NCBI GenBank assembly: GCA_965218425.1 | Contig: OZ244621.1 | Coordinates: 3,232,001-3,296,000, forward strand | Origin: an uncultured Candidatus Binatia bacterium | Lineage (GTDB): Bacteria; Desulfobacterota; Binatia; UBA9968; CAXXLF01 | DNA length: 64,000 nt | Direction of reading: 5' to 3' | Shown: positions 199 through 24,812 of the stretch, piece after piece | Layout: each line of letters begins with the position of its first letter | Position numbering within the stretch: position 1 is the stretch's first letter | The notes under the pieces: model-generated | Seen by the model: only the letters and a program-made list of their open reading frames with translations | Told to the model about the DNA's origin: nothing | Databases searched by the model: none | Position numbers and translations under genes: made by a program

Positions 199-747
199 AT
201 GGAAATTAACGAAGAGAGGACTTTGGGGATCGATCCAGGGACCGTTCATACGGGGTGGGGGATCATTGAACTCCACCGCGGGTCCCTGATTCACGTGGCC
301 CACGGAACCATTGGGTCCTCATCCAACCAGGGGCAGGGGGTTCGATTAAAACGCATCTATCGTGGACTCCAAGAAGTCATGCAACGCTATAGGCCCAAGA
401 TCATTAGCGTGGAAAAGGTCTTTTTTGCCCGTAACGCTCAAAGCGCGTTGAAGTTAGGGCAGGCCCGCGGTGTGGCGCTGCTGGCCGGGGCCGAGAACGA
501 CCTGAACCTCCAAGAATACACCCCGGTTGTAATCAAGCAATCGGTGGTGGGATACGGTCATGCCAGCAAGCTCCAAATGCAAAAGATGGTTACCTCGCTT
601 CTTCATCTTACCGAACCCATTTCCACAGATGCAGCTGACGCCCTCGCCGCGGCCATCTGCCATCTCCATCAACGGACCTTTCAATCGCGTGTCGAGGCAG
701 CCACGCCACCGCGGCGCCAGGTGGTGCGTCCATGTTCAGGTCGATAA
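199..747 (+). CDS. ruvC: Holliday junction resolvase RuvC
   Basis: LGIDPG, VEKVF, LGQARG, DAADALA motifs. Confidence 0.97.
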   Translation: MEINEERTLGIDPGTVHTGWGIIELHRGSLIHVAHGTIGSSSNQGQGVRLKRIYRGLQEVMQRYRPKIISVEKVFFARNAQSALKLGQARGVALLAGAENDLNLQEYTPVVIKQSVVGYGHASKLQMQKMVTSLLHLTEPISTDAADALAAAICHLHQRTFQSRVEAATPPRRQVVRPCSGR

Positions 748-762
748 GGATGTGTCACACCC

Positions 763-1353
763 ATGATAGCAAAGATAAACGGCTCCCTCGCCCATAAGGA
801 ACCCGGCGAGGTGGTCATCGACGTTGGGGGTATTGGGTATCAACTCTTTATCTCCCTGGGCGTGTTCTACCGTTTACCGGAAATTGGTAAACCGGTGAGC
901 CTTTTCGTTCATACCCATCTACGGGAGGACGCCCTGCAGTTGTTTGGATTCCTCGAGCACGAGGAGAAGCAGACATTTTTGATGATGAATGGAGTGTCCG
1001 GGATCGGGCCAAAGTTGGCCATCGGTATCCTTTCGGGGATTCCATCAAAGGAACTGGTTCGCGCCCTCAGGGAGGGGGACCAGGTGCGCCTCGTTTCGAT
1101 TCCGGGAGTTGGGAAAAAGCTCGCGGAGCGTATGATTGTTGAGTTGAAAGACAAACTGATGGCCTTGCCCGACGAGAAGCAGATGGGTAGACAGGATGGC
1201 AACTCGCAATTGATGCGGGATGCGGTTTCCGCCCTTGTGAACCTGGGATACCGGCGTGGAGAATCGGAAAGTATCGTACGCGAAGTGGTTAACGGTGAAG
1301 CGGGGAACCTGGAAGTGGTTTTGAAAGAAACCCTGCGCAGGTTGAGTCAATAA
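763..1353 (+). CDS. ruvA: Holliday junction branch migration protein RuvA
   Basis: [42 protein letters not shown]. Confidence 0.97.
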
Positions 1354-1366
1354 GGATACAAAACTC

Positions 1367-2458
1367 ATGGCACAACGAGGGGTCATTGAGCCCAAGGGGA
1401 CTTTGGCATCACCCATGGAGGTTAGTCCCAGTGAGATCTCTGTAATACCGACTGAAGAGGATCTAAAATTCGAGATGGGCCTAAGGCCCCGTGCCTTCGA
1501 CGAATATGTAGGACAGGACAAGGTCAAGGAGAACCTCAAAGTTGCCATTGCCGCAGCCCGAGGACGAAACGATGTCCTTGACCACTTCCTCTTCCATGGC
1601 CCGCCGGGGTTGGGGAAGACCTCATTGGCCTATATCATTTCTAGGGAGATGGGAGTCAATATTAAAGCCACCTCCGGCCCTGTGGTGGAGCGACCCGGAG
1701 ATCTGGCTGCGTTGCTCACCAACCTGGAGGAAGGCGATATCCTCTTTATCGACGAGATCCATCGTCTCAACCATGTGGTGGAGGAGGTTCTCTACCCGGC
1801 CATGGAGGACTACCAGATCGATGTCATGATCGGCCAGGGACCTTCTGCCCGATCCATCAAGCTGGAACTCAAGCGCTTCACCCTCATCGGCGCCACCACG
1901 CGATCGGGACTCCTCACACCTGCGCTGCGCAACCGGTTTGGTGCCGTCTTTCGTCTCGATTTCTATTCCCCCGAGACGCTGGTTCAGATTTTGCAAAGAT
2001 CCGCTTCCCTTCTGGGGACGAAGGGAAACCATGAGGGCATGGCAGAAATTGCACGCCGTTCCCGTGGCACCCCCAGGATCGCCAATCGTCTGCTGCGCAG
2101 GGTGCGGGATTACGCTCAGGTGAAGGCGGGCGGGGTGATTACCAAGGAAGCCACTCAGGGTGCCCTGGAGATGCTTGAAATTGACCACATAGGACTCGAT
2201 AAGATGGACATCATGATCCTGTTAACCTTAATTGATAAATTTGGCGGAGGTCCCGCGGGGCTAGAGACCCTTGCCGCCGCCATTGGAGAGGAAAAAGACA
2301 CCATCGAGGACGCCTATGAGCCCTACCTGATACAGGTGGGTTATCTTAACCGCACACCCAGGGGACGCGTGGCCACTCCTTTAGCCTATGAGCACTTTGG
2401 CCGGAGTAAGGAAACCATGCCGCCAAATGCGGGTGGGAAGCAACAGAACTTGCTTTGA
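1367..2458 (+). CDS. ruvB: Holliday junction branch migration ATPase RuvB
   Basis: [39 protein letters not shown]. Confidence 0.98.
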
Positions 2459-2737: not shown

Positions 2738-4978
2738 ATGGCCTCGCAGGACGGGTCAAAAGGAATAGAAGACGGCCTCAGGCAAGAGGAGGCTAAGGGG
2801 AGAAAGCGCGAAGGGATGGTGATGCTTGTCGCCACCCTGATGGTGCTGCTCTTTGCCTTCTTTGAAGTGCTGATCCCGGAACTCTCCACTGAATACTCCT
2901 TCACCAACAATATCGCATTCTTTCTCCTCGTTAACATCAACATTATTCTTCTCGTTTTGCTGGTGTTCCTGGTGGTGCGCAACCTGGTCAAGCTCCTGTT
3001 CGAGAGAAGGCGGAAGGTACTGGGATCACGCCTTCGGGTGCGGCTGGTCCTTGTCTTTGTTGGACTCTCGCTCATCCCCACCTTACTGCTATTTTTTATT
3101 GCTGGAGGATTCGTAACGAAGTCCTTTGAGAAATGGTTTGGGGTACAGGTGGCCAATGCGCTGCGCGGTTCGCTGGAAATAGGTGAGACCTATTACCAGA
3201 ACTCAGCGAATAACGCCCTGTTTTATGCCCGCCAGCTCAGCCAGCGTATCACCGAGGCGGGGCTGTTTGATCCCAAGTCTATGGACGGTCTGAAGGCCTT
3301 CGTGAAGGCCAAACAGCGCGAGTACAATCTGGGAACGGTGGAAGTCTTCTCCCCTGATCGTAAGCCCCTGGTGGTGGCCTTCAATGACAAAGTGCCCACG
3401 GGCATCACGGTCAAACCCGAATCCGAATTCCTCGATCGTGCGTTGCGTGGACTAGAGGTGACCCGGACTCAAGGGTTTGGAGAGGGAGACATTATCCGGG
3501 GAGGAGTCCCCGTAAAGAGTCAGGACGGAAAAATCCTGGGGGTCGTGGTGGTGGACTACTTTGTCCCCAGGAGTGTCACAAAGAGGGCACTTCAGATCAG
3601 GCGCTCCTATGATGAGCACAAGAACATGGCCATCTTTAAAGAGGATATTAAAAATACTTACCTGTTGACCCTGATCCTCTTTACTCTTGTGATTATCTTT
3701 TCCGCCACCTGGTTCGGCCTTTACCTGGCCAAGGGTATTACCGGTCCCATCCAAAAGCTTGCCGAGGGAACCCATGAGGTGGCCCACGGGAATTGGGACT
3801 ATCAGATCGACGCCAGCGGCGATGATGAGATTAGTATGCTCGTGGGTTCTTTCAACCAGATGACCCGCGATCTCAAGCAGATCAACGCGGAACTGGAACA
3901 GAGACGACGTTATATGGAGACCCTGTTGACCAACGTTACGGCAGGGGTGGTATTCGTGGATCGCCAGGGAAAGGTCCAAACCATCAACCGAGCTGCAGAA
4001 CAGATCTTGGGTCTGGATGCGGGTGAAGTGCTGGGACAACGATACGACAAGGTTTTTCAGTCTGATTCCCTTGTGGTTCTAGAGGAGATCATCGATCGTG
4101 TGCAGGGCGGCAGAGGCATCAAGCGCGAGGTCAGGGTTTCGAGAAGCGACCGGATCCTGACCTTGCTGGTGACCGCCGCTATCTTAAGGGATGATGGTGA
4201 ACAAGTGTTGGGAGTCATGATGTTTGTGGAGGACATCACCGAGATCCAGAAAGTACAACGGATGGGGGCATGGCGCGAGGTGGCCCGGCGCATTGCCCAC
4301 GAGATCAAAAATCCTCTCACTCCCATTCAGCTTTCCGCTCAACGTCTGAGGAAACGCTACGAGCATCTTCTGGAAAGCGACGGTGCAGTACTGGAAAAGT
4401 GCACTTCTACGATCATTAAACAGGTGGAGGAGCTCAAGAACCTGGTGAACGAATTCTCTAACTTCGCCCGTCTACCAACGGCGGAGCTGGCCCCCAATGA
4501 TCTCAACCAGGTGGTTAAAGAGGCTCTCTTTCTTTTCAAGGAGGGACACAGGGATTTGGAATTTCGCTTTGACAAGCGGGGAGACCTCCCGCTGCTCGAT
4601 CTGGACCGGGAACAGATCAAACGTGTCTTGATGAACCTGCTGGACAACGCGGTGGCTGTGGTGGGAGATGGCGGAAAAATCGAAATCTCCACCGAGTATG
4701 ACCCCTCCTTGCGTATCGTTCACCTGGAGGTTGCGGACAACGGTTGTGGATTGTCTCCCGAAGTGAGAGAAAATATTTTCGAACCTTACTTTTCTACCAA
4801 GAAAAACGGGACGGGTTTAGGTCTGGCCATCGTGAGCACCATCGTGTCGGATCACCGGGGTTATATACGGGTACGTCAAAACGAACCCACGGGTACGCGG
4901 TTTATCGTTGAATTGCCCGTGACGGCCCAGGACCAGCCCGTGGAATTGACAAAGCGAGAGCACGGACTTTCGATCTAA
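2738..4978 (+). CDS. ntrY: NtrY-like multi-TM HAMP-PAS sensor histidine kinase
   Basis: N-terminal TM helices, periplasmic domain, HAMP, PAS, H-box AWREVARRIAHEIKNPLTPIQL, DNGCG and GTGLGL boxes. Confidence 0.9.
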   Translation: MASQDGSKGIEDGLRQEEAKGRKREGMVMLVATLMVLLFAFFEVLIPELSTEYSFTNNIAFFLLVNINIILLVLLVFLVVRNLVKLLFERRRKVLGSRLRVRLVLVFVGLSLIPTLLLFFIAGGFVTKSFEKWFGVQVANALRGSLEIGETYYQNSANNALFYARQLSQRITEAGLFDPKSMDGLKAFVKAKQREYNLGTVEVFSPDRKPLVVAFNDKVPTGITVKPESEFLDRALRGLEVTRTQGFGEGDIIRGGVPVKSQDGKILGVVVVDYFVPRSVTKRALQIRRSYDEHKNMAIFKEDIKNTYLLTLILFTLVIIFSATWFGLYLAKGITGPIQKLAEGTHEVAHGNWDYQIDASGDDEISMLVGSFNQMTRDLKQINAELEQRRRYMETLLTNVTAGVVFVDRQGKVQTINRAAEQILGLDAGEVLGQRYDKVFQSDSLVVLEEIIDRVQGGRGIKREVRVSRSDRILTLLVTAAILRDDGEQVLGVMMFVEDITEIQKVQRMGAWREVARRIAHEIKNPLTPIQLSAQRLRKRYEHLLESDGAVLEKCTSTIIKQVEELKNLVNEFSNFARLPTAELAPNDLNQVVKEALFLFKEGHRDLEFRFDKRGDLPLLDLDREQIKRVLMNLLDNAVAVVGDGGKIEISTEYDPSLRIVHLEVADNGCGLSPEVRENIFEPYFSTKKNGTGLGLAIVSTIVSDHRGYIRVRQNEPTGTRFIVELPVTAQDQPVELTKREHGLSI

Positions 4979-5018
4979 CAGCTGGTCAAATGGAGTTAAA
5001 GGCGGAGGAGAACGCGGA

Positions 5019-6341
5019 GTGAAAAGGAACGAAAATACTATTTTAGTTATCGATGATGAGGACGGTGTCCGGGAGACCGTAAGGGAGATCCTCACGGACG
5101 AAGGCTATCAAGTGGTGGAGGCAAAAAATGAGGCCATGGTGCAGGATTTGATCCGCAAGGAGCTGCCCCATCTCGTCTTGCTGGATATCTGGATGCCCAA
5201 CGTGGATGGTATCGATCTTTTAAAACAGATCAAGGAGCAACACCCGAACCTTCGGGTGATTATGATCTCAGGTCACGGCAACATCCACACTGCTGTGACG
5301 GCGGCCAAACTAGGTGCATTTGACTTCTTGGAGAAACCGCTTTCCCTGGAAAGTTTATTGGAAACGGTTCAGCGGGCCTTGGAGGGGCAACCTGCCGTAA
5401 AGACGGCGGCAGAAGTAAAGAGAACCAAAACCACCCAAGGACAAGGGCGTCCTAGGGCGGTGACATCCAAACGATCACGCAAGAAGACCCTGCATCAGAG
5501 GACCCTGAAAAAGAGTGTGGTGGGTGCCGGCCATGGACTTCACTCCGGGGTGAAAACAGGCCTCATCCTCCATCCATTGCCTCCCAATAGCGGCATTCTT
5601 TTCTCCAGTATTTCGGCCGATGCCACGGTTCCCGCCCATCTCCACTACGTGCTCTCCACCGGGTATGCCACCTCTCTTCAAAAAAAGGGCATCATGGTCA
5701 AAACAGTGGAGCATTTTCTCGCCGCCCTGCACTCCTATGGAATTAGCAACCTGCTGGTCAAGATGCATGGAGAAATTCCCATCATGGATGGATCTGCGTT
5801 GGAATTTTGCCGCCTCATCGAAGAAGCCGGCATTGAGGAGCAGGATGCCCAGTGGTCGGAGATTGTGGTGGATAAGCCCTACCGAACGGAAACGGATGGG
5901 GGGGAATGGATTACTGTAGAGCCAGCAGACACCTTTGGGGTCCGCTATATTCTAAACTATCCAGCTCCCGTGGGCACCCAGGAGCACACCTATATCTACT
6001 CCGGTGCGGATTCCTTTCGAGAGGAGATTGCGGGGGCTCGTACCTTTGGATTTGTGAAGGATATCGAACATCTGGAAAAAATGGGACTGGCCAATGGAGG
6101 CCGCCTTAGCAATTGCATCCTGATTGGTGATGAGAAGATCATCAACACGGATCTTCGTTTCCCCGATGAATTGGCCAGGCACAAAATTCTGGACATCGTA
6201 GGCGATTTTTATTTGTTGGGGAAGCCCATTCGAGGCATGGTGACGGCTTGCATGACCGGACACTCGGACAATATTGCTTTACTCAGAGAGATGAAAAGGG
6301 GCATGGCCCTGGAAGAGGAGCCTCGGGTCAACCCTAGCTAG
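5019..6341 (+). CDS. lpxC: Receiver (REC) domain fused to UDP-3-O-acyl-GlcNAc deacetylase LpxC
   Basis: aa ~5-121 REC (VIDDE, LLDIWMP, MISGHG, FLEKP); basic linker; from ~aa160 LpxC (QRTL, GLHSG, TVEHFLAAL, EIPIMDGSA, ARTFGF, HKILDIVGD, GH); one uninterrupted ORF. Confidence 0.93.
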   Translation: MKRNENTILVIDDEDGVRETVREILTDEGYQVVEAKNEAMVQDLIRKELPHLVLLDIWMPNVDGIDLLKQIKEQHPNLRVIMISGHGNIHTAVTAAKLGAFDFLEKPLSLESLLETVQRALEGQPAVKTAAEVKRTKTTQGQGRPRAVTSKRSRKKTLHQRTLKKSVVGAGHGLHSGVKTGLILHPLPPNSGILFSSISADATVPAHLHYVLSTGYATSLQKKGIMVKTVEHFLAALHSYGISNLLVKMHGEIPIMDGSALEFCRLIEEAGIEEQDAQWSEIVVDKPYRTETDGGEWITVEPADTFGVRYILNYPAPVGTQEHTYIYSGADSFREEIAGARTFGFVKDIEHLEKMGLANGGRLSNCILIGDEKIINTDLRFPDELARHKILDIVGDFYLLGKPIRGMVTACMTGHSDNIALLREMKRGMALEEEPRVNPS

Positions 6342-6344
6342 ATC

Positions 6345-6785
6345 ATGGCAAACTTCCAACCCTTTCCTCGTCTTTTCACTGTGGCCGAGGCGAGGTCCCT
6401 TCTTCCTACTTTGCGTCCTTTGATTGAACAGGTATTTCAAAGCCTCGAAGTTATGAAGAGCAAGAGCGAGGCGCTGATTCGCAGGGAGGGGCTCAACCCC
6501 GACAGCCCCGATTTACAAAAGAAGCTCGAAGCGGACGATACAGTTGCCGGCGTCATACGCCGGGTGGAAGGATTAGTGGAGCGGATCAACGATCTTGGCT
6601 GTGTCTGCAAGGGAGTGGAGCAGGGTCTTGTGGATTTTCCCTGCCTCTTGGGAGATGAGGTAGTGTTTCTCTGTTGGCAGTATGGCGAAGAAGACGTTAA
6701 CCATTGGCACAGTATCCATGATGGGTTTACGGGGCGCCGAACTTTGCTCGATCTAGATGAAGAGAAAAAGACTTCCTATCACTGA
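6345..6785 (+). CDS. DUF2203 domain protein
   Basis: FTVAEARSLLP, KG.EQGLVDFP, LCWQYGE, WH...DGFTGR. Confidence 0.9.
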   Translation: MANFQPFPRLFTVAEARSLLPTLRPLIEQVFQSLEVMKSKSEALIRREGLNPDSPDLQKKLEADDTVAGVIRRVEGLVERINDLGCVCKGVEQGLVDFPCLLGDEVVFLCWQYGEEDVNHWHSIHDGFTGRRTLLDLDEEKKTSYH

Positions 6786-7507
6786 TGGGAACCCTTCCTG
6801 AGGGTCCTCCTCGCCTTGAGCACCGGAATCGCGTCAATTTTCTCCTGAGAGATCATAGACCAATAGATTCCGCGTGGTTTGCCCTTGCTGGGACCAAGAG
6901 CCAGGACCTTTTCCGGGGTAATGATTGCGTTGATCGGTATGTCATGTTCGGTCATAGGTATCTCCGAATTGAGGAGTTGCAAGGGGTGGATGGTGGTGAC
7001 GATTGGAGTACTGGCGTCCACTTGCCCTTCTTCCCTGAGCAGAGCATATTCCAGGTCTGAATAGCCTCCTCCCTTGCCCACCCGCGCTCCTTTCCCATTC
7101 ACCGCCACGGATCCGCAAACAATGAGATGGATCTTTTTTATCTTTTCCATGGCCACTGGGCGTCCGTACTTTGTAGCCCCTTTGATGGAGGAGGCGTGGA
7201 AAGGGGAGACTTTCAAGTGTCTTGGGTCCAACTCGATGAATGGCTTCATGCTTTGAAGTCTCGGCACCGCCATATAAACGATCTTACCTTCCTCAAGAGC
7301 CCTTTGACGTACGGCCCTTTGAGGGGAATCCGGGTTGGCTTTGATCCTTTTGGCTTGCTGCCAGGAGGGTAGCTGACTGAGAAGATGAGCACACCTTTCG
7401 GAACCCACGAAGTTGGGAATCCTTCCCTGGGGGCCAGGGAAGCGGGCCACCTGCTTTTCTTTCATGATTTGCCAGATCCCCGCGCGAATGTCGTCCTTTC
7501 TCTCCAT
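6779..7507 (-). CDS. 5-formyltetrahydrofolate cyclo-ligase-like protein (COG0212-type)
   Basis: GRIPNFVG, NPDSPQ, GSVAV..GARVGKGGGYSDLEY, HDIP. Confidence 0.88.
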   Translation of the reverse strand: MERKDDIRAGIWQIMKEKQVARFPGPQGRIPNFVGSERCAHLLSQLPSWQQAKRIKANPDSPQRAVRQRALEEGKIVYMAVPRLQSMKPFIELDPRHLKVSPFHASSIKGATKYGRPVAMEKIKKIHLIVCGSVAVNGKGARVGKGGGYSDLEYALLREEGQVDASTPIVTTIHPLQLLNSEIPMTEHDIPINAIITPEKVLALGPSKGKPRGIYWSMISQEKIDAIPVLKARRTLRKGSHQ

Positions 7508-7551: not shown

Positions 7552-8628
7552 CTAGCCCTGGGAAAGCAAATTACTCAAATCGATGATACCGGCATTGGCG
7601 CGGGAAATATAGGATGACATCACCAGCGAGTAATTTGCAGTGAAGCCGAAATCCGCTCCGTTGAGAACCATTGGGCTCCATACTGTTCGTTGCGTTGCTT
7701 CCAATTCTCGGATGATCTGTTGGACACTTCTCATGGCATTTTTTTTCTCAAGAACTTCCTTGAAGTCGACCTCCACAGCACGTAGGAAAAGGATCAAGGC
7801 CCAACAGGTTCCTCGCGCCTCGTAAAAGACATCATCAATCTCCAGCCAGGGTGTTTTTATCCCTACTTCGAAGTTCGGCAGGGTGGATTGCTGTGCCTCA
7901 GCATCCCCTGCCAGGTCCGTGTTGATACGAATTTGTCCCACACTGGCGCTCAAGCGTTGGGATAGGCTCCCCAGACGATTGGCCACCACCTTGAGCCAGT
8001 CGCGAAGATTATCCGCACGGGAATAAAATTGCGTGCCCGTATTCGCAGTGTCCGCCACCCCGGCTAGATAACCCTTTAACGCCTCAATTCCCTTGCGGTA
8101 TTCGGTCTCTGCAGAAGGGAACAGCCATGCCTCGTTATCTACGTTGAATTGCGGCTCTGCCTTGGCCAGATCCACGTTCTCCTTTGATTGGGTTTGACCG
8201 CGGCTGATGTCGTTTCGCAACACGCGTGTAAGATCTCGTACCTGGACTAGAGCACCGTATTCCCAGCCGGGCATGTTATCCATGAATACGCCGGGCGGCA
8301 GCACGTCGTTGGTCAAATAGCCACCGGGTTTGTCCAGTAAATTACTTGCCACCTTGATTAGCGTGCTGGTGGTAACATAGCCCGTCACCAGATTTTCGTT
8401 GCGGTCTGCGGCCTGATACTCGGCCACTTGCTGAACATCGAAAAGATTCGGCTCGTTGCTCCAGTAGACCACCACGGTGAATAAAAGCAAAAAAATCAGT
8501 ACCAGGGTGAGGCCTACGGCCCGCATTCTACCCCGGAGTTTCAAATTCCGCGGATTCAATCGTGACAGGATTCGCTTTATTGGATTTTGAGGTTGAATGG
8601 TTTCTGTCTGGATATCGGGAACAGCCAC
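7552..8628 (-). CDS. DUF2333 family protein
   Basis: N-terminal TM; YWSNEP, KPGGYLTND, DNMPGWEYG, FYSRADNL, DDVFYEARG. Confidence 0.85.
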   Translation of the reverse strand: MAVPDIQTETIQPQNPIKRILSRLNPRNLKLRGRMRAVGLTLVLIFLLLFTVVVYWSNEPNLFDVQQVAEYQAADRNENLVTGYVTTSTLIKVASNLLDKPGGYLTNDVLPPGVFMDNMPGWEYGALVQVRDLTRVLRNDISRGQTQSKENVDLAKAEPQFNVDNEAWLFPSAETEYRKGIEALKGYLAGVADTANTGTQFYSRADNLRDWLKVVANRLGSLSQRLSASVGQIRINTDLAGDAEAQQSTLPNFEVGIKTPWLEIDDVFYEARGTCWALILFLRAVEVDFKEVLEKKNAMRSVQQIIRELEATQRTVWSPMVLNGADFGFTANYSLVMSSYISRANAGIIDLSNLLSQG

Positions 8629-8970: not shown

Positions 8971-10197
8971 TTGCGCAACCGCGCCTTTGAGGTGATTGGG
9001 TTCCCCGAGTTTCGTTTGCTCTGGTTCGGGCAATCCCTCATGGGCATGGCCACCTGGATGGATCAGGTTGCCAGGGGTTGGCTCATGTATGAGCTAACCA
9101 ATTCACCGGTTCAGCTTGGGCTCGTGCGGGGAATCCAGGCTATCCCGATCCTTTTGTTGTCGCCATTGGCTGGCAGCGCCGCCGACCGCTATGACCGAAA
9201 GACCCAGCTGATGATTGTGCAGATACTGGACTTCTTAATGTATGGCGCAGTCGCCTTGCTCGTATTCACGGATAGCATTCGGCCATGGCATGTGTACGTG
9301 ACTGCGGTAGGGATGTCTACAGTCCAGTCGTTTCAGCATCCCGCCCGCGCTTCCATGGTCGCCGACTCTGTGCCCACGAGCCATCTGACCAACGCCATCG
9401 GTCTAAATTCTGTTGTCTTTAATGTGAGCCGGAGCACCGGCCCAGCGCTGGCAGGTCTCCTCATCGCCATGTTCGGCACCGGCAGCTCCTATGCCGTCCA
9501 GGCCGCTTTTTGCATACTCGCAACTGCTTATACAGTTCAGCTCCGTATAAGCTCGCCTTCTTCTGTCAGCTCTCAGGGGCACGGCACGAAGAGAACGTCC
9601 CTAGGCCGGAGCATTCTAGACGGATGGGAGTTCAGCTGGAGGACCGAAAATGTTCGCATTGGGCTACTCATTACATCCCTTGCATCGCTGTTCATCATTC
9701 CCTTCTCAACTCTCCTGCCAGTGTTCGCAAAGGACGTTCTTGGAGTTGGTGCCACCGGACAGGGTTTGCTTCTCACCGCTATGGGTATCGGTGCCTTGAT
9801 GAGCTCCGTCCTCATCGCTTCACTTGGGGACAGATTAGCCAGGGGCGTTGTCATGCTGGGTGGGGTAGCTCTCTACGGGGTCAGCGTCATCGCCTTCGCC
9901 TGGTCTCCATGGTTCAAGCTCTCCTTCCCATTGATGATTTTGGTGGGCCTCTTTCATGTTGCCTCACACGCCCTGGTGCAGACTGTGGTCCAATCCTACT
10001 CTCCCTCGGAGTTCCGCGGCCGGGTTATGGCCATCTACCATCAGACCCACTTCGTTCACACCATGGGTAGCGTGCTCATTGGGGCCTTGGCCTCAATCTG
10101 GGGAGCGCAGTGGTCGGTTGCATCCATGGCTGCAATGGGTGCGCTGTCCATGGTCATCATCCATGTGACAATGCCCCGTACTCGGCTCATTCGGTAG
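8971..10197 (+). CDS. MFS transporter (start may be upstream, CTG at 8887)
   Basis: Multi-TM MFS, GSAADRYDRK motif; paralog of 14343..15680. Confidence 0.9.
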   Translation: MRNRAFEVIGFPEFRLLWFGQSLMGMATWMDQVARGWLMYELTNSPVQLGLVRGIQAIPILLLSPLAGSAADRYDRKTQLMIVQILDFLMYGAVALLVFTDSIRPWHVYVTAVGMSTVQSFQHPARASMVADSVPTSHLTNAIGLNSVVFNVSRSTGPALAGLLIAMFGTGSSYAVQAAFCILATAYTVQLRISSPSSVSSQGHGTKRTSLGRSILDGWEFSWRTENVRIGLLITSLASLFIIPFSTLLPVFAKDVLGVGATGQGLLLTAMGIGALMSSVLIASLGDRLARGVVMLGGVALYGVSVIAFAWSPWFKLSFPLMILVGLFHVASHALVQTVVQSYSPSEFRGRVMAIYHQTHFVHTMGSVLIGALASIWGAQWSVASMAAMGALSMVIIHVTMPRTRLIR

Positions 10198-23640: not shown

Positions 23641-24546
23641 TTAAGTTAGAGCCGGAATTATCTGGAGTCCAGCCCATGGGGATGAATTCCCAGCCTGCGC
23701 TCTGGGCAGAAAGGCCTCCGGTGCCGGAGAACGATAGCCCAGGGCGCTGTGAGGCCGCCGCTGGTTATACTCTCTTCTCCATCTTTCGATCAGCACCTGA
23801 GCTTCCCTCAGGGTTTCAAACACCTCCCGGTTGAGCAGCTCATCCCTGAGTTTTCCGTTAAAACTCTCCACGTAGCCATTCTCCCAAGGACTGCCAGGCT
23901 CGATGTAGAGTGTCCTGACACCAATGGCCTTGAGCCAGTCCCGGATAGCCTGAGCCGTAAACTCGGGGCCATTGTCGGACCGAAGGGACTGCGGCACGCC
24001 CCGTTCCACGAATAGCTCCGCTAACCGTTCCAGCACATCCCGGTGATTCATCCGTCTGGCCACATCAATCGCCAAGCACTCCCGGGTGTATTCATCCAGG
24101 ATGCTCAACAGCCGAAAGGCCCGACCGTCTTCGGTTCGCTCGTGCACGAAGTCATAACTCCACACATGGTTTCGATGCGCCGGTCTCAGGCGAATGCAGG
24201 AGCCATCAGTCAACCGGAGCCTCCCTCGCTTAGGCTGACGGCTGAGGACTTTCAGCCCTTCCTGCCTCCAGAGCCTCTCCACTCGCTTGTGGTTGACCTT
24301 CCACCCCTCCCCACGCAGCATGGCCGTAATCCTCCGGTAGCCGTATCGCCCGTATTCGCTGGCCAGCTCCATCATCCGAGCCACTAGTCTTGCTTCCTCT
24401 TCCGGGATCTCTCGGACTCTTCGTTGCGTCGATCGCGGCTGTCCCAACACTTGGCAAGCCCGGCGTTCGCAGACTCGATCAGGTCCCAATCTTTCTCTGG
24501 CCCATATCACCGCTCGTCTCCTCTTCGCCGGGCCTAGAAGTTTCCC
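23641..24546 (-). CDS. IS3 transposase OrfB (DDE), reached by -1 frameshift
   Basis: [28 protein letters not shown]; slippery G_GGA_AAC at 24546-24540. Confidence 0.9.
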
Positions 24547-24812
24547 GAGGACACTTCCTTCAGGATCTGGTTGTCCAGCGATAGATCCGCCACCAGCTTC
24601 TTCAACCGCGCATTCTCCTTGTCCAAGGCCTTGAGCCTCTTGGCCTGATCCATCTTCAGGCCTCCATATTCCTTCCTCCACCGGTAGTAGGTCTGCACGG
24701 TTACCCCCACCTGCTTGCACACCTGGCCCACCGCCTTCCCTTGGGCCAAGCTCACCTCCGCCTCACGCAGCTTGAGGATAATCTGCTCGGCCGTAAATCG
24801 CTTTCTTGCCAT
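24534..24812 (-). CDS. IS3 transposase OrfA (HTH)
   Basis: [39 protein letters not shown]. Confidence 0.92.

Follow-up and report, generated by a model that had tools for sequence, protein, structure and literature searches.

A conserved receiver-LpxC fusion in an uncultured Candidatus Binatia bacterium, a candidate mode of lipid A control

LpxC catalyses the committed step in the synthesis of lipid A, is the control point of the pathway and has long been an antibiotic target; it is known to be controlled by proteolysis, through FtsH/LapB/YejM or Lon, and by transcription. Response regulators with enzymatic outputs are also familiar, with CheB, PleD/WspR and RpfG as examples, and in CheB the receiver obstructs the active site for as long as it is unphosphorylated. 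Here we describe a gene that combines these two subjects, located in a 64,000-nucleotide stretch of DNA from an uncultured Candidatus Binatia bacterium (assembly GCA_965218425.1, contig OZ244621.1, positions 3,232,001 to 3,296,000), hereafter the window. The gene lies directly downstream of a sensor histidine kinase of the NtrY type, and encodes a protein in which a receiver domain (REC) is fused to LpxC. An earlier note, drawn up from the letters of the window and their open reading frames (ORFs), had described the pair as an NtrY-like kinase followed by a REC::LpxC fusion, and had proposed that the kinase phosphorylates LpxC itself; the ORFs and the Pfam domains agree with that description (Table 1). 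The fusion is genuine and conserved, and is uncharacterised.

The closest described systems are found in Desulfovibrio. In D. vulgaris, lpxC is the single target of DVU2934 by DNA-affinity-purified-chip (DAP-chip) analysis, and in S. fumaroxidans lpxC lies immediately upstream of the orthologous regulator operon (PMC3333781). A D. alaskensis G20 transposon mutant of the kinase Dde_3000 has strongly raised lpxC expression, and lpxC is apparently the sole target of the sigma54 activator Dde_3003 (PMC4045070). The window locus resembles DVU2931/DVU2934 and Dde_3000/Dde_3003 in its phylum-level lineage, and in the succession of a membrane kinase and a receiver-bearing protein tied to lpxC. Control in Desulfovibrio is transcriptional, with an intact AAA+ activator bearing the GAFTGA motif and a sigma54 promoter, whereas here the AAA+ and helix-turn-helix (HTH) modules are gone and the receiver is attached covalently to the enzyme. 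On the basis of shared gene order and kinase architecture, the window gene is regarded as a derivative of the Desulfovibrio-type system and not a member of it.

Likenesses to better-known systems are also apparent. The locus shares its kinase architecture with NtrY/NtrX of Brucella, R. sphaeroides and C. crescentus, and among solved structures its receiver is nearest to the Brucella NtrX chains; NtrX, by contrast, is a DNA-binding regulator with a large regulon. NtrYX is linked to envelope control in alphaproteobacteria, as the earlier note had stated; in R. sphaeroides, loss of NtrYX raises lpxC transcripts 8.8-fold and increases lipopolysaccharide (LPS) through an indirect effect (PMC7240162). 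NtrYX lowers lpxC transcripts in R. sphaeroides and also in C. crescentus (PMC12444477, PMC7240162), and a 2025 review of lipid A regulation lists this effect under LpxC regulation, with neither 'fusion' nor 'fused' occurring in it (PMC12444477). The enterobacterial FtsH/LapB/YejM route likewise fits LpxC output to envelope status, but does so by proteolysis through a C-terminal degron and adaptors, with no phosphorelay and no fused domain (PMC12444477). The layout of a receiver, a flexible linker and a catalytic domain is that of CheB, from which the fusion differs in having as its output a biosynthetic enzyme of an essential envelope pathway and not a signalling enzyme. A natural LpxC fusion is already known in the bifunctional LpxC/FabZ (NCBIfam PRK13188), found here among the weaker matches (P0346, P0348, P0361, P0364), in which the partner is C-terminal and metabolic, while that of the window protein is N-terminal and belongs to signalling. 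No description of a receiver-LpxC or NtrX-LpxC fusion was found in the literature searched, with subscription journals and supplements outside the search, in line with the earlier note, which knew of no characterised example. Nothing relevant emerged either from the papers listed on deacetylases and other enzymatic output domains of response regulators.

Two domains are recognised in the fusion protein. The receiver matches Response_reg (PF00072) with 109.2 bits (cut-off 30.2), and the LpxC profile (PF03331) covers residues 160–425 with 279.5 bits (3.8e-83; profile positions 1–266 of 268); no AAA+ or HTH domain is found by Pfam in the 440-residue chain. The NCBIfam lpxC model TIGR00325 scores 250.9 bits, above its cut-off of 187.25. 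By contrast, the NtrX model NF051870 reaches 138.5 bits against a cut-off of 600, and its match is confined to the receiver (profile positions 3–155 of 452). The receiver contains D12-D13, D56 in LLDIWMP, S84 in MISGHG and K106-P107, with D56 (codon 5184–5186) as the predicted phospho-acceptor, and among solved structures it comes closest to the NtrX receiver chains of Brucella, 4d6x and 5m7n. The enzyme begins at the usual LpxC N-terminus, QRTLK, and contains the motifs TVEH (E231-H232), HKILD (H388, D392) and GH (H415), along with T342, K389 and D396. The TVEH, ARTFGF, HKILD..GD and GH motifs of residues 157–425 match the solved LpxC chains residue for residue (E 1.4e-52). E231-H232, H388, D392, D396 and H415 are identical in the alignment to those chains; we take these residues to comprise the zinc ligands (His, His, Asp) and the catalytic Glu and His.

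The complete NtrX-like receiver and the full LpxC announced in the earlier note are therefore both present. The linker, which had been put at about 38 residues rich in Lys, Arg and Thr, has that composition but is about 34 residues long. An AlphaFold2 model, built on a 37-row alignment (mean predicted local distance difference test score, pLDDT, 84.6; predicted template-modelling score, pTM, 0.67), displays two confident domains, with linker residues 124–152 at a pLDDT below 50. A complex prediction between the receiver (1–125) and LpxC (157–440), each entered as an alignment, gave 'no answer', with a score of 0.00 in both runs, and counts neither for nor against an interface.

The integrity of the gene was examined from several sides. 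The junction stretch is reproduced with 0 differences and 0 gaps in contigs from public runs of three studies (X1 and X2 over 4700–6800, X3 over 4700–6304), one of which may be the assembly's own source. Among the 22 public runs found, none is listed as RNA. Conservation among relatives, described below, is a stronger argument for a real fusion than this agreement between contigs. The GTG start at 5019 is preceded by a GGAGGAG stretch resembling a Shine-Dalgarno sequence. No in-frame ATG occurs near the border of the REC and LpxC domains; in-frame GTGs are found at residues 148, 167 and 168, with no clear ribosome-binding site before any of them, and either of the last two, used as a start, would deprive LpxC of its conserved N-terminus, QRTLK.

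The genome is closed (one contig, 4.46 Mb, 97% complete), and PF03331 matches it once, at the fusion gene; the second, stand-alone lpxC for which the earlier note had suggested a check was not found. Two lpxA genes score above the TIGR01852 cut-off (C1:3110918-3111679 and C1:1840756-1841511). Because the single PF03331 match lies in a closed genome that also encodes lpxA, the fusion would be the working LpxC of the cell, an indirect argument for its predicted deacetylase role.

The search for relatives covered 5.8 billion proteins, and the best 120 matches to the fusion all contain PF03331 and PF00072 (408–444 amino acids, 68–100% identity). Longer proteins with a sigma54-type AAA+ region between receiver and enzyme also exist: the best 120 matches to one such long form all combine LpxC with sigma54-type AAA+ domains, and 119 of them also have REC. 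From a library clustered at 50% identity, 52 of the best 150 representatives, picked by length, were scanned. REC and LpxC occur in one protein in 40 of the 52, namely 24 with these two domains only, one with HTH_8 in addition and 15 with AAA+ (two of the latter with HTH_8). The rest are six AAA+/lid-LpxC proteins without a receiver, which are probably cut N-terminally, four LpxC-FabA proteins and two of some other kind. In a sample of 121 genomes of the phylum, the window's own included, the fused gene is present in 26 and broken by a contig end in one more (G074). The short form is found in 19 of these genomes and the long form (694–745 amino acids) in seven, five of which are read by Pfam as REC, Sigma54_activat, AAA_lid_14 and LpxC; the long proteins listed in Table 1 belong to other families of the phylum. 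The architecture search proposed in the earlier note returned a fusion that is both old and widespread. Metagenome bins of delta proteobacterium, Deltaproteobacteria, Candidatus Binatia and Thermodesulfobacteriota appear among the record titles of the fused relatives, as does one bin of Leptospirales.

That last bin, labelled Spirochaetota, has a short REC::LpxC that is 44% identical, with no NtrY-type kinase directly upstream (L064). In the LpxC tree it groups with the fused copy of genome G034, and could reflect either an inter-phylum transfer or a binning error. Among the matches listed, G034 is the only one of the 26 fused genomes with a second, free LpxC: its fused gene (L024) is on contig C11, and the free lpxC (L053), which adjoins a kinase, is on contig C33. 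G034 may represent a natural intermediate, or its bin may be a mixture of two organisms. G079, G004 and G120 gave no LpxC-type match, their best match to the fusion protein being at receiver level only (E ~1e-21 to 1e-22); G079 is listed as 100% complete. Two open frames of 1007 and 1378 amino acids, considered as larger fusions, were rejected as spurious high-GC frames, the kinase being in a different frame.

Sequence conservation is distributed unevenly along the protein. The five receiver residues D12, D13, D56, S84 and K106 are kept in all 120 close relatives, for which the mean identity to the window protein is 0.73 in REC, 0.79 in LpxC and 0.27 in the linker. Short forms have the phospho-acceptor Asp in 39 of 40 cases and the receiver Lys in 40 of 40; for long forms both counts are 21 of 22. 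A Ser or Thr occupies the corresponding position in all 62. On the enzyme side, E231, H232, H388, K389, D392, D396 and H415 are invariant in the 63 fused sequences, and E231-H232, H388, D392, D396 and H415 are also invariant in 52 of 52 free LpxC proteins; the position of T342 is Thr in 60 of the 63 and Ser in three. These values indicate that the receiver is under constraint. In the close relatives the linker measures 27–36 residues and has a net charge of at least +4 in 109 of 120, whereas the linkers of other clades are longer, neutral or acidic. Contact with the membrane or with nucleic acid and access for a protease are possibilities for its purpose.

The origin of the fusion was approached with a maximum-likelihood tree of 119 LpxC domains, comprising 40 short, 22 long, one intermediate and 52 free forms and an LpxC-FabZ outgroup of four. 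All 63 fused domains fall into one clade, with a support of 97 in the Shimodaira-Hasegawa-like approximate likelihood ratio test (SH-aLRT), throughout which the short forms are intermixed with the long ones. From the well-supported branches, the short state must have changed three times or more, and the parsimony count is 12. Because it is implausible that an AAA+-HTH module was inserted anew at the same site, the long form is read as ancestral, and the 440-residue form would be a derivative that was reduced repeatedly. Intermediate stages are represented by P0259 (491 amino acids), which consists of REC, HTH_8 and LpxC without AAA+, and by P0242 (505 amino acids), with a linker of about 120 residues that looks like a remnant of a Fis-type HTH. 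Each time the AAA+ and HTH modules went, the receiver was retained.

Gene order connects the fused genes to unfused ones. Fused relatives have the order ruvB-kinase-REC::lpxC and unfused relatives ruvB-lpxC-kinase-regulator, the ruvB synteny being seen by tblastn in L025, L027 and L060–L062 (fused) and in L040 and L041 (unfused); the unfused order of lpxC and regulator is that of S. fumaroxidans (PMC3333781). In the unfused loci L034–L041, which were selected for a receiver match near lpxC, lpxC is immediately followed by a homologous kinase and a REC-AAA+-HTH regulator. Twelve further loci were not so selected, and show the lpxC-kinase-regulator linkage in three cases (L046, L049, L053), a different regulator nearby in two (L048, L052) and neither in seven. 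The regulators of L034–L041 have GAFTGA or GSFTGA together with Walker A and Walker B (hhhDE) motifs in 8 of 8, which identifies them as ordinary sigma54 activators and not NtrX. The GAFTGA-type signature of the Desulfovibrio activators is thus a feature of all eight unfused regulators that the window protein lacks. Among the long fused forms GAFTGA is present in 0 of 20, as is the Walker B DE, with Walker A kept in 15 of 20.

NtrX proper as the ancestor is disfavoured by the receiver-only match to the NtrX model and by the GAFTGA motif of the unfused regulators. The ancestor would be better described as a GAFTGA-bearing sigma54 activator of an lpxC-dedicated two-component system of the DVU2934/Dde_3003 type. 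In our reading, a transcriptional circuit dedicated to lpxC was converted to direct control at the protein level. The earlier note had placed the gene in the position of NtrX: the likeness stands for the receiver, and the ancestry is better assigned elsewhere. The architecture, residues and kinase pairing that it reported hold, and the 440-residue form is to be seen as the reduced end of a REC-AAA+-HTH-LpxC series that begins at about 730 amino acids.

The kinase has the Pfam order NtrY_N, HAMP, PAS, HisKA and HATPase_c, with all five domains above their cut-offs (NtrY_N, 34.4 bits against 23.2). It shows N-terminal hydrophobic segments, a periplasmic-looking region and, in HisKA, the H-box HEIKNPL; no NCBIfam equivalog passes its cut-off, the best being the LIC_11548 family (300.6 against 750). 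Its stop lies 40 bp upstream of the fusion gene. By tblastn, a kinase immediately precedes the fused gene in L014, L017, L019, L025, L027, L028 and L060–L062; the synteny that the earlier note had suggested checking is thus seen for the kinase in these nine fused loci, and not in the Leptospirales bin. The ORF list and the REC-AAA-HTH proteins of the genome revealed no second regulator gene beside the window kinase. The two other REC-AAA-HTH proteins, which carry GAFTGA or GSFTGA, sit elsewhere in the genome, each adjoined by an ORF with a kinase-like ending, and the window kinase is therefore considered to have no other neighbouring regulator. In a tree of 39 kinases, the neighbours of fused genes and the lpxC-linked kinases form one group of 21 rows (SH-aLRT 90, below the 95 mark), and betaproteobacterial NtrY is set apart, by a branch with a support of 100, from that group and the kinases sampled from the other phyla. 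Identity to the window kinase by tblastn is 40–50% for lpxC-linked kinases and about 30–32% for betaproteobacterial NtrY.

These observations are consistent with the following course of events. The starting point would be an NtrY-type kinase and a sigma54 activator that switched on a neighbouring lpxC. Fusion of lpxC to the 3' end of the regulator gene would have made the AAA+ and DNA-binding modules useless, and their decay and disappearance would have left the REC-linker-LpxC arrangement. In the present organism, the adjacent kinase is anticipated to set the phosphorylation of D56 upon a membrane or periplasmic signal, and the state of D56 would set LpxC output and hence lipid A flux. We consider it moderately probable that phosphorylation controls LpxC output directly at the protein level, and favour this explanation because the fusion is the sole lpxC, its receiver is conserved to near the level of the enzyme, and the receiver was kept through the losses of AAA+ and HTH. 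The fuller proposal, that in this lineage the entire two-component system has moved from gene regulation to an exclusively post-translational switch, by which the kinase reads the status of the envelope and, through D56, directly turns the only LpxC on or off, is more tentative, at slightly less than an even chance. About half of the confidence placed in direct control goes to a CheB-like form, in which the unphosphorylated receiver on its flexible tether would restrain the enzyme and phosphorylation would free it. This form is preferred on account of the flexible tether and of the ancestral logic, in which a phosphorylated activator would have meant more LpxC; a dependence of stability or oligomerisation on phosphorylation would fit the data almost as well.

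Several points weigh against control by phosphorylation as outlined above. The LpxC-only proteins P0280, P0283 and P0307 (289–292 amino acids) nest within the fused clade; they may be contig-end fragments or products of miscalled starts, or secondary fissions, and in the latter case the enzyme would be able to act with no receiver attached. The phospho-acceptor Asp has been lost from one short and from one long form. The pairing of kinase and receiver is drawn from adjacency and conserved synteny only, and phosphotransfer, its effect on LpxC, the sign and the physical mechanism are likewise deduced from comparison. Which sign the regulation would have is a matter of guesswork. In Desulfovibrio and in alphaproteobacteria, lpxC expression goes up when the kinase or the system is lost (PMC4045070, PMC7240162), which for the fusion is readable either way. 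Finally, the linker is both long and disordered, and differs greatly from clade to clade in its length and sequence, which speaks against a rigid allosteric relay.

Phosphorylation could instead set the amount of LpxC, with the receiver, alone or with the linker, serving as a degron or adaptor module for FtsH, Lon or ClpXP and standing in for the enterobacterial FtsH/LapB/YejM route. In every system studied, control of LpxC acts chiefly on its level, through proteolysis or through transcription (PMC12444477), and a disordered segment of 27–36 residues with conserved positive charge does lie between the two domains. In addition, the genome gave no match to the LapB zinc-ribbon model PF18073, which hints only weakly at the absence of a LapB-type route, given a model of 28 positions that matches 10 of 14 control genomes, Gram-positives included. 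Set against this, no degron, adaptor or protease link was identified, and the basic linker is specific to its clade, the others being acidic or neutral, so that a mechanism based on the linker would not be general. We regard this alternative as unlikely. Still less probable is a receiver that regulates nothing and persists as a neutral relic, a phosphate sink or a dimerisation handle beside a constitutive LpxC. Decay of regulatory parts does occur in the family, as the loss of AAA+ and HTH modules after fusion demonstrates, and LpxC-only proteins are found within the fused clade. The receiver nevertheless outlasted the middle modules, which were lost independently three times or more; its five residues are present in every close relative and in nearly all distant ones; it has changed little more than the enzyme while the linker drifted; and the kinase gene has been kept adjacent in the nine loci named above.

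Two other explanations deserve consideration. Information might flow in reverse, with LpxC reporting the occupancy of its substrate or product to the receiver and kinase, through altered phosphatase or kinase activity or competition for the phosphoryl group, such that the flux of lipid A precursors is sensed and the system acts through other outputs. HTH_8 is still present in P0256, P0258 and P0259, and some members could therefore act on DNA; the window protein, on the other hand, has no other output domain, no second regulator was found beside its kinase, and the long forms have lost GAFTGA and Walker B in 20 of 20. Such a reverse flow is very improbable. The least credible possibility, to which we assign next to no weight, is that the fusion is an artefact of assembly or frame, or is bypassed by an LpxC made separately from an internal start. 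The in-frame GTGs offer an opening for the latter, but they lack clear ribosome-binding sites, no ATG lies at the border, and the two downstream GTGs would remove the N-terminus of LpxC; the junction is identical in the contigs of three studies, and hundreds of relatives share the open frame. Direct control of LpxC output by phosphorylation, as set out above, remains the explanation that we prefer, and appears well supported by comparative evidence.

The positions of the features are collected in Table 1. The DUF2203 ORF begins 3 bp past the stop of the fusion gene, the distance given in the earlier note, and is probably co-transcribed with it. Its membership in a conserved unit, raised there as a matter for synteny, was rejected: DUF2203 lies downstream of the fusion in L060 and L061 only, relatives of about 70% identity, and tblastn gave no match in the loci of 43 of 45 relatives. 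DUF2203 appears from this comparison to be a local neighbour outside the conserved unit. No terminator-like site was found on the + strand of the spacer between kinase and fusion gene. One sigma70-like site precedes the kinase gene (2667–2695), which is not significant against a mean of 3.0 such sites in shuffled sequence. The sigma54 -24/-12 consensus, allowing up to two mismatches, has no match on the + strand between 2000 and 5100; over the whole window its 56 matches are fewer than the mean of 64.8 in shuffled sequence.

Table 1. Positions of the ruv genes, the kinase-fusion locus and DUF2203 in the window, and of long fused forms in relatives (locus:positions)
Feature	Position	Strand	Basis
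ruvC-ruvA-ruvB	199-2458	+	Pfam
ruvB, last of ruvC-ruvA-ruvB	1367..2458	+	Pfam RuvB_N, AAA_lid_4, RuvB_C; synteny anchor
NtrY-type sensor histidine kinase, 746 aa	2738..4978	+	ORF list, Pfam
Spacer of 40 bp, kinase to fusion gene, with GGAGGAG stretch resembling a ribosome-binding site before GTG	4979..5018	+	
REC::LpxC fusion gene, 440 aa, GTG start	5019..6341	+	ORF list, Pfam, NCBIfam
Receiver domain, residues 8-117	5040..5369	+	Pfam 1.6e-31
Basic linker, predicted disordered, residues 123-156	5385..5486	+	AlphaFold2 pLDDT; composition
LpxC catalytic domain, residues 157-425	5487..6293	+	Pfam, NCBIfam, alignment to solved chains
DUF2203 gene, 146 aa	6345..6785	+	Pfam DUF2203 1.5e-32
Long REC + sigma54-type AAA+ + lid + LpxC	L014:3151-5328		
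Long REC + sigma54-type AAA+ + lid + LpxC	L017:5768-8002	-	
Long REC + sigma54-type AAA+ + lid + LpxC	L018:4555-6783		
Long REC + sigma54-type AAA+ + lid + LpxC	L019:4710-6893		
Long REC + sigma54-type AAA+ + lid + LpxC	L021:6070-8154	-	

Beyond DUF2203, a gene of the 5-formyltetrahydrofolate cyclo-ligase family (6779–7507, - strand) is convergent with it, the stop regions overlapping by 7 bp, and is followed by a DUF2333 gene (7552–8628, - strand; 496 bits). A transposase-like gene with an integrase core (rve, rve_3, HTH_21) is located amid metabolic genes at 23641–24720 on the - strand. In the rest of the window, a Pfam scan of 47 ORFs, beginning at 8971, brought no envelope or LPS genes to light.

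REC::LpxC is a candidate for a new mode of LpxC control, with a place among the response regulators that have enzymatic outputs. If this is true, a phospho-switch on LpxC would constitute a third control mode beside proteolysis and transcription, a form of LPS control and of response-regulator output not previously described, and a committed biosynthetic enzyme would join the list of outputs of response regulators. The pair would also provide a simple in-vitro system for studying which signals from the envelope are sensed by NtrY-type kinases. The family may, in addition, be viewed as a stepwise record of the collapse of a regulatory circuit onto its single target, from neighbouring genes to a fusion, through the decay of the ATPase and DNA-binding modules, to a minimal receiver-enzyme.

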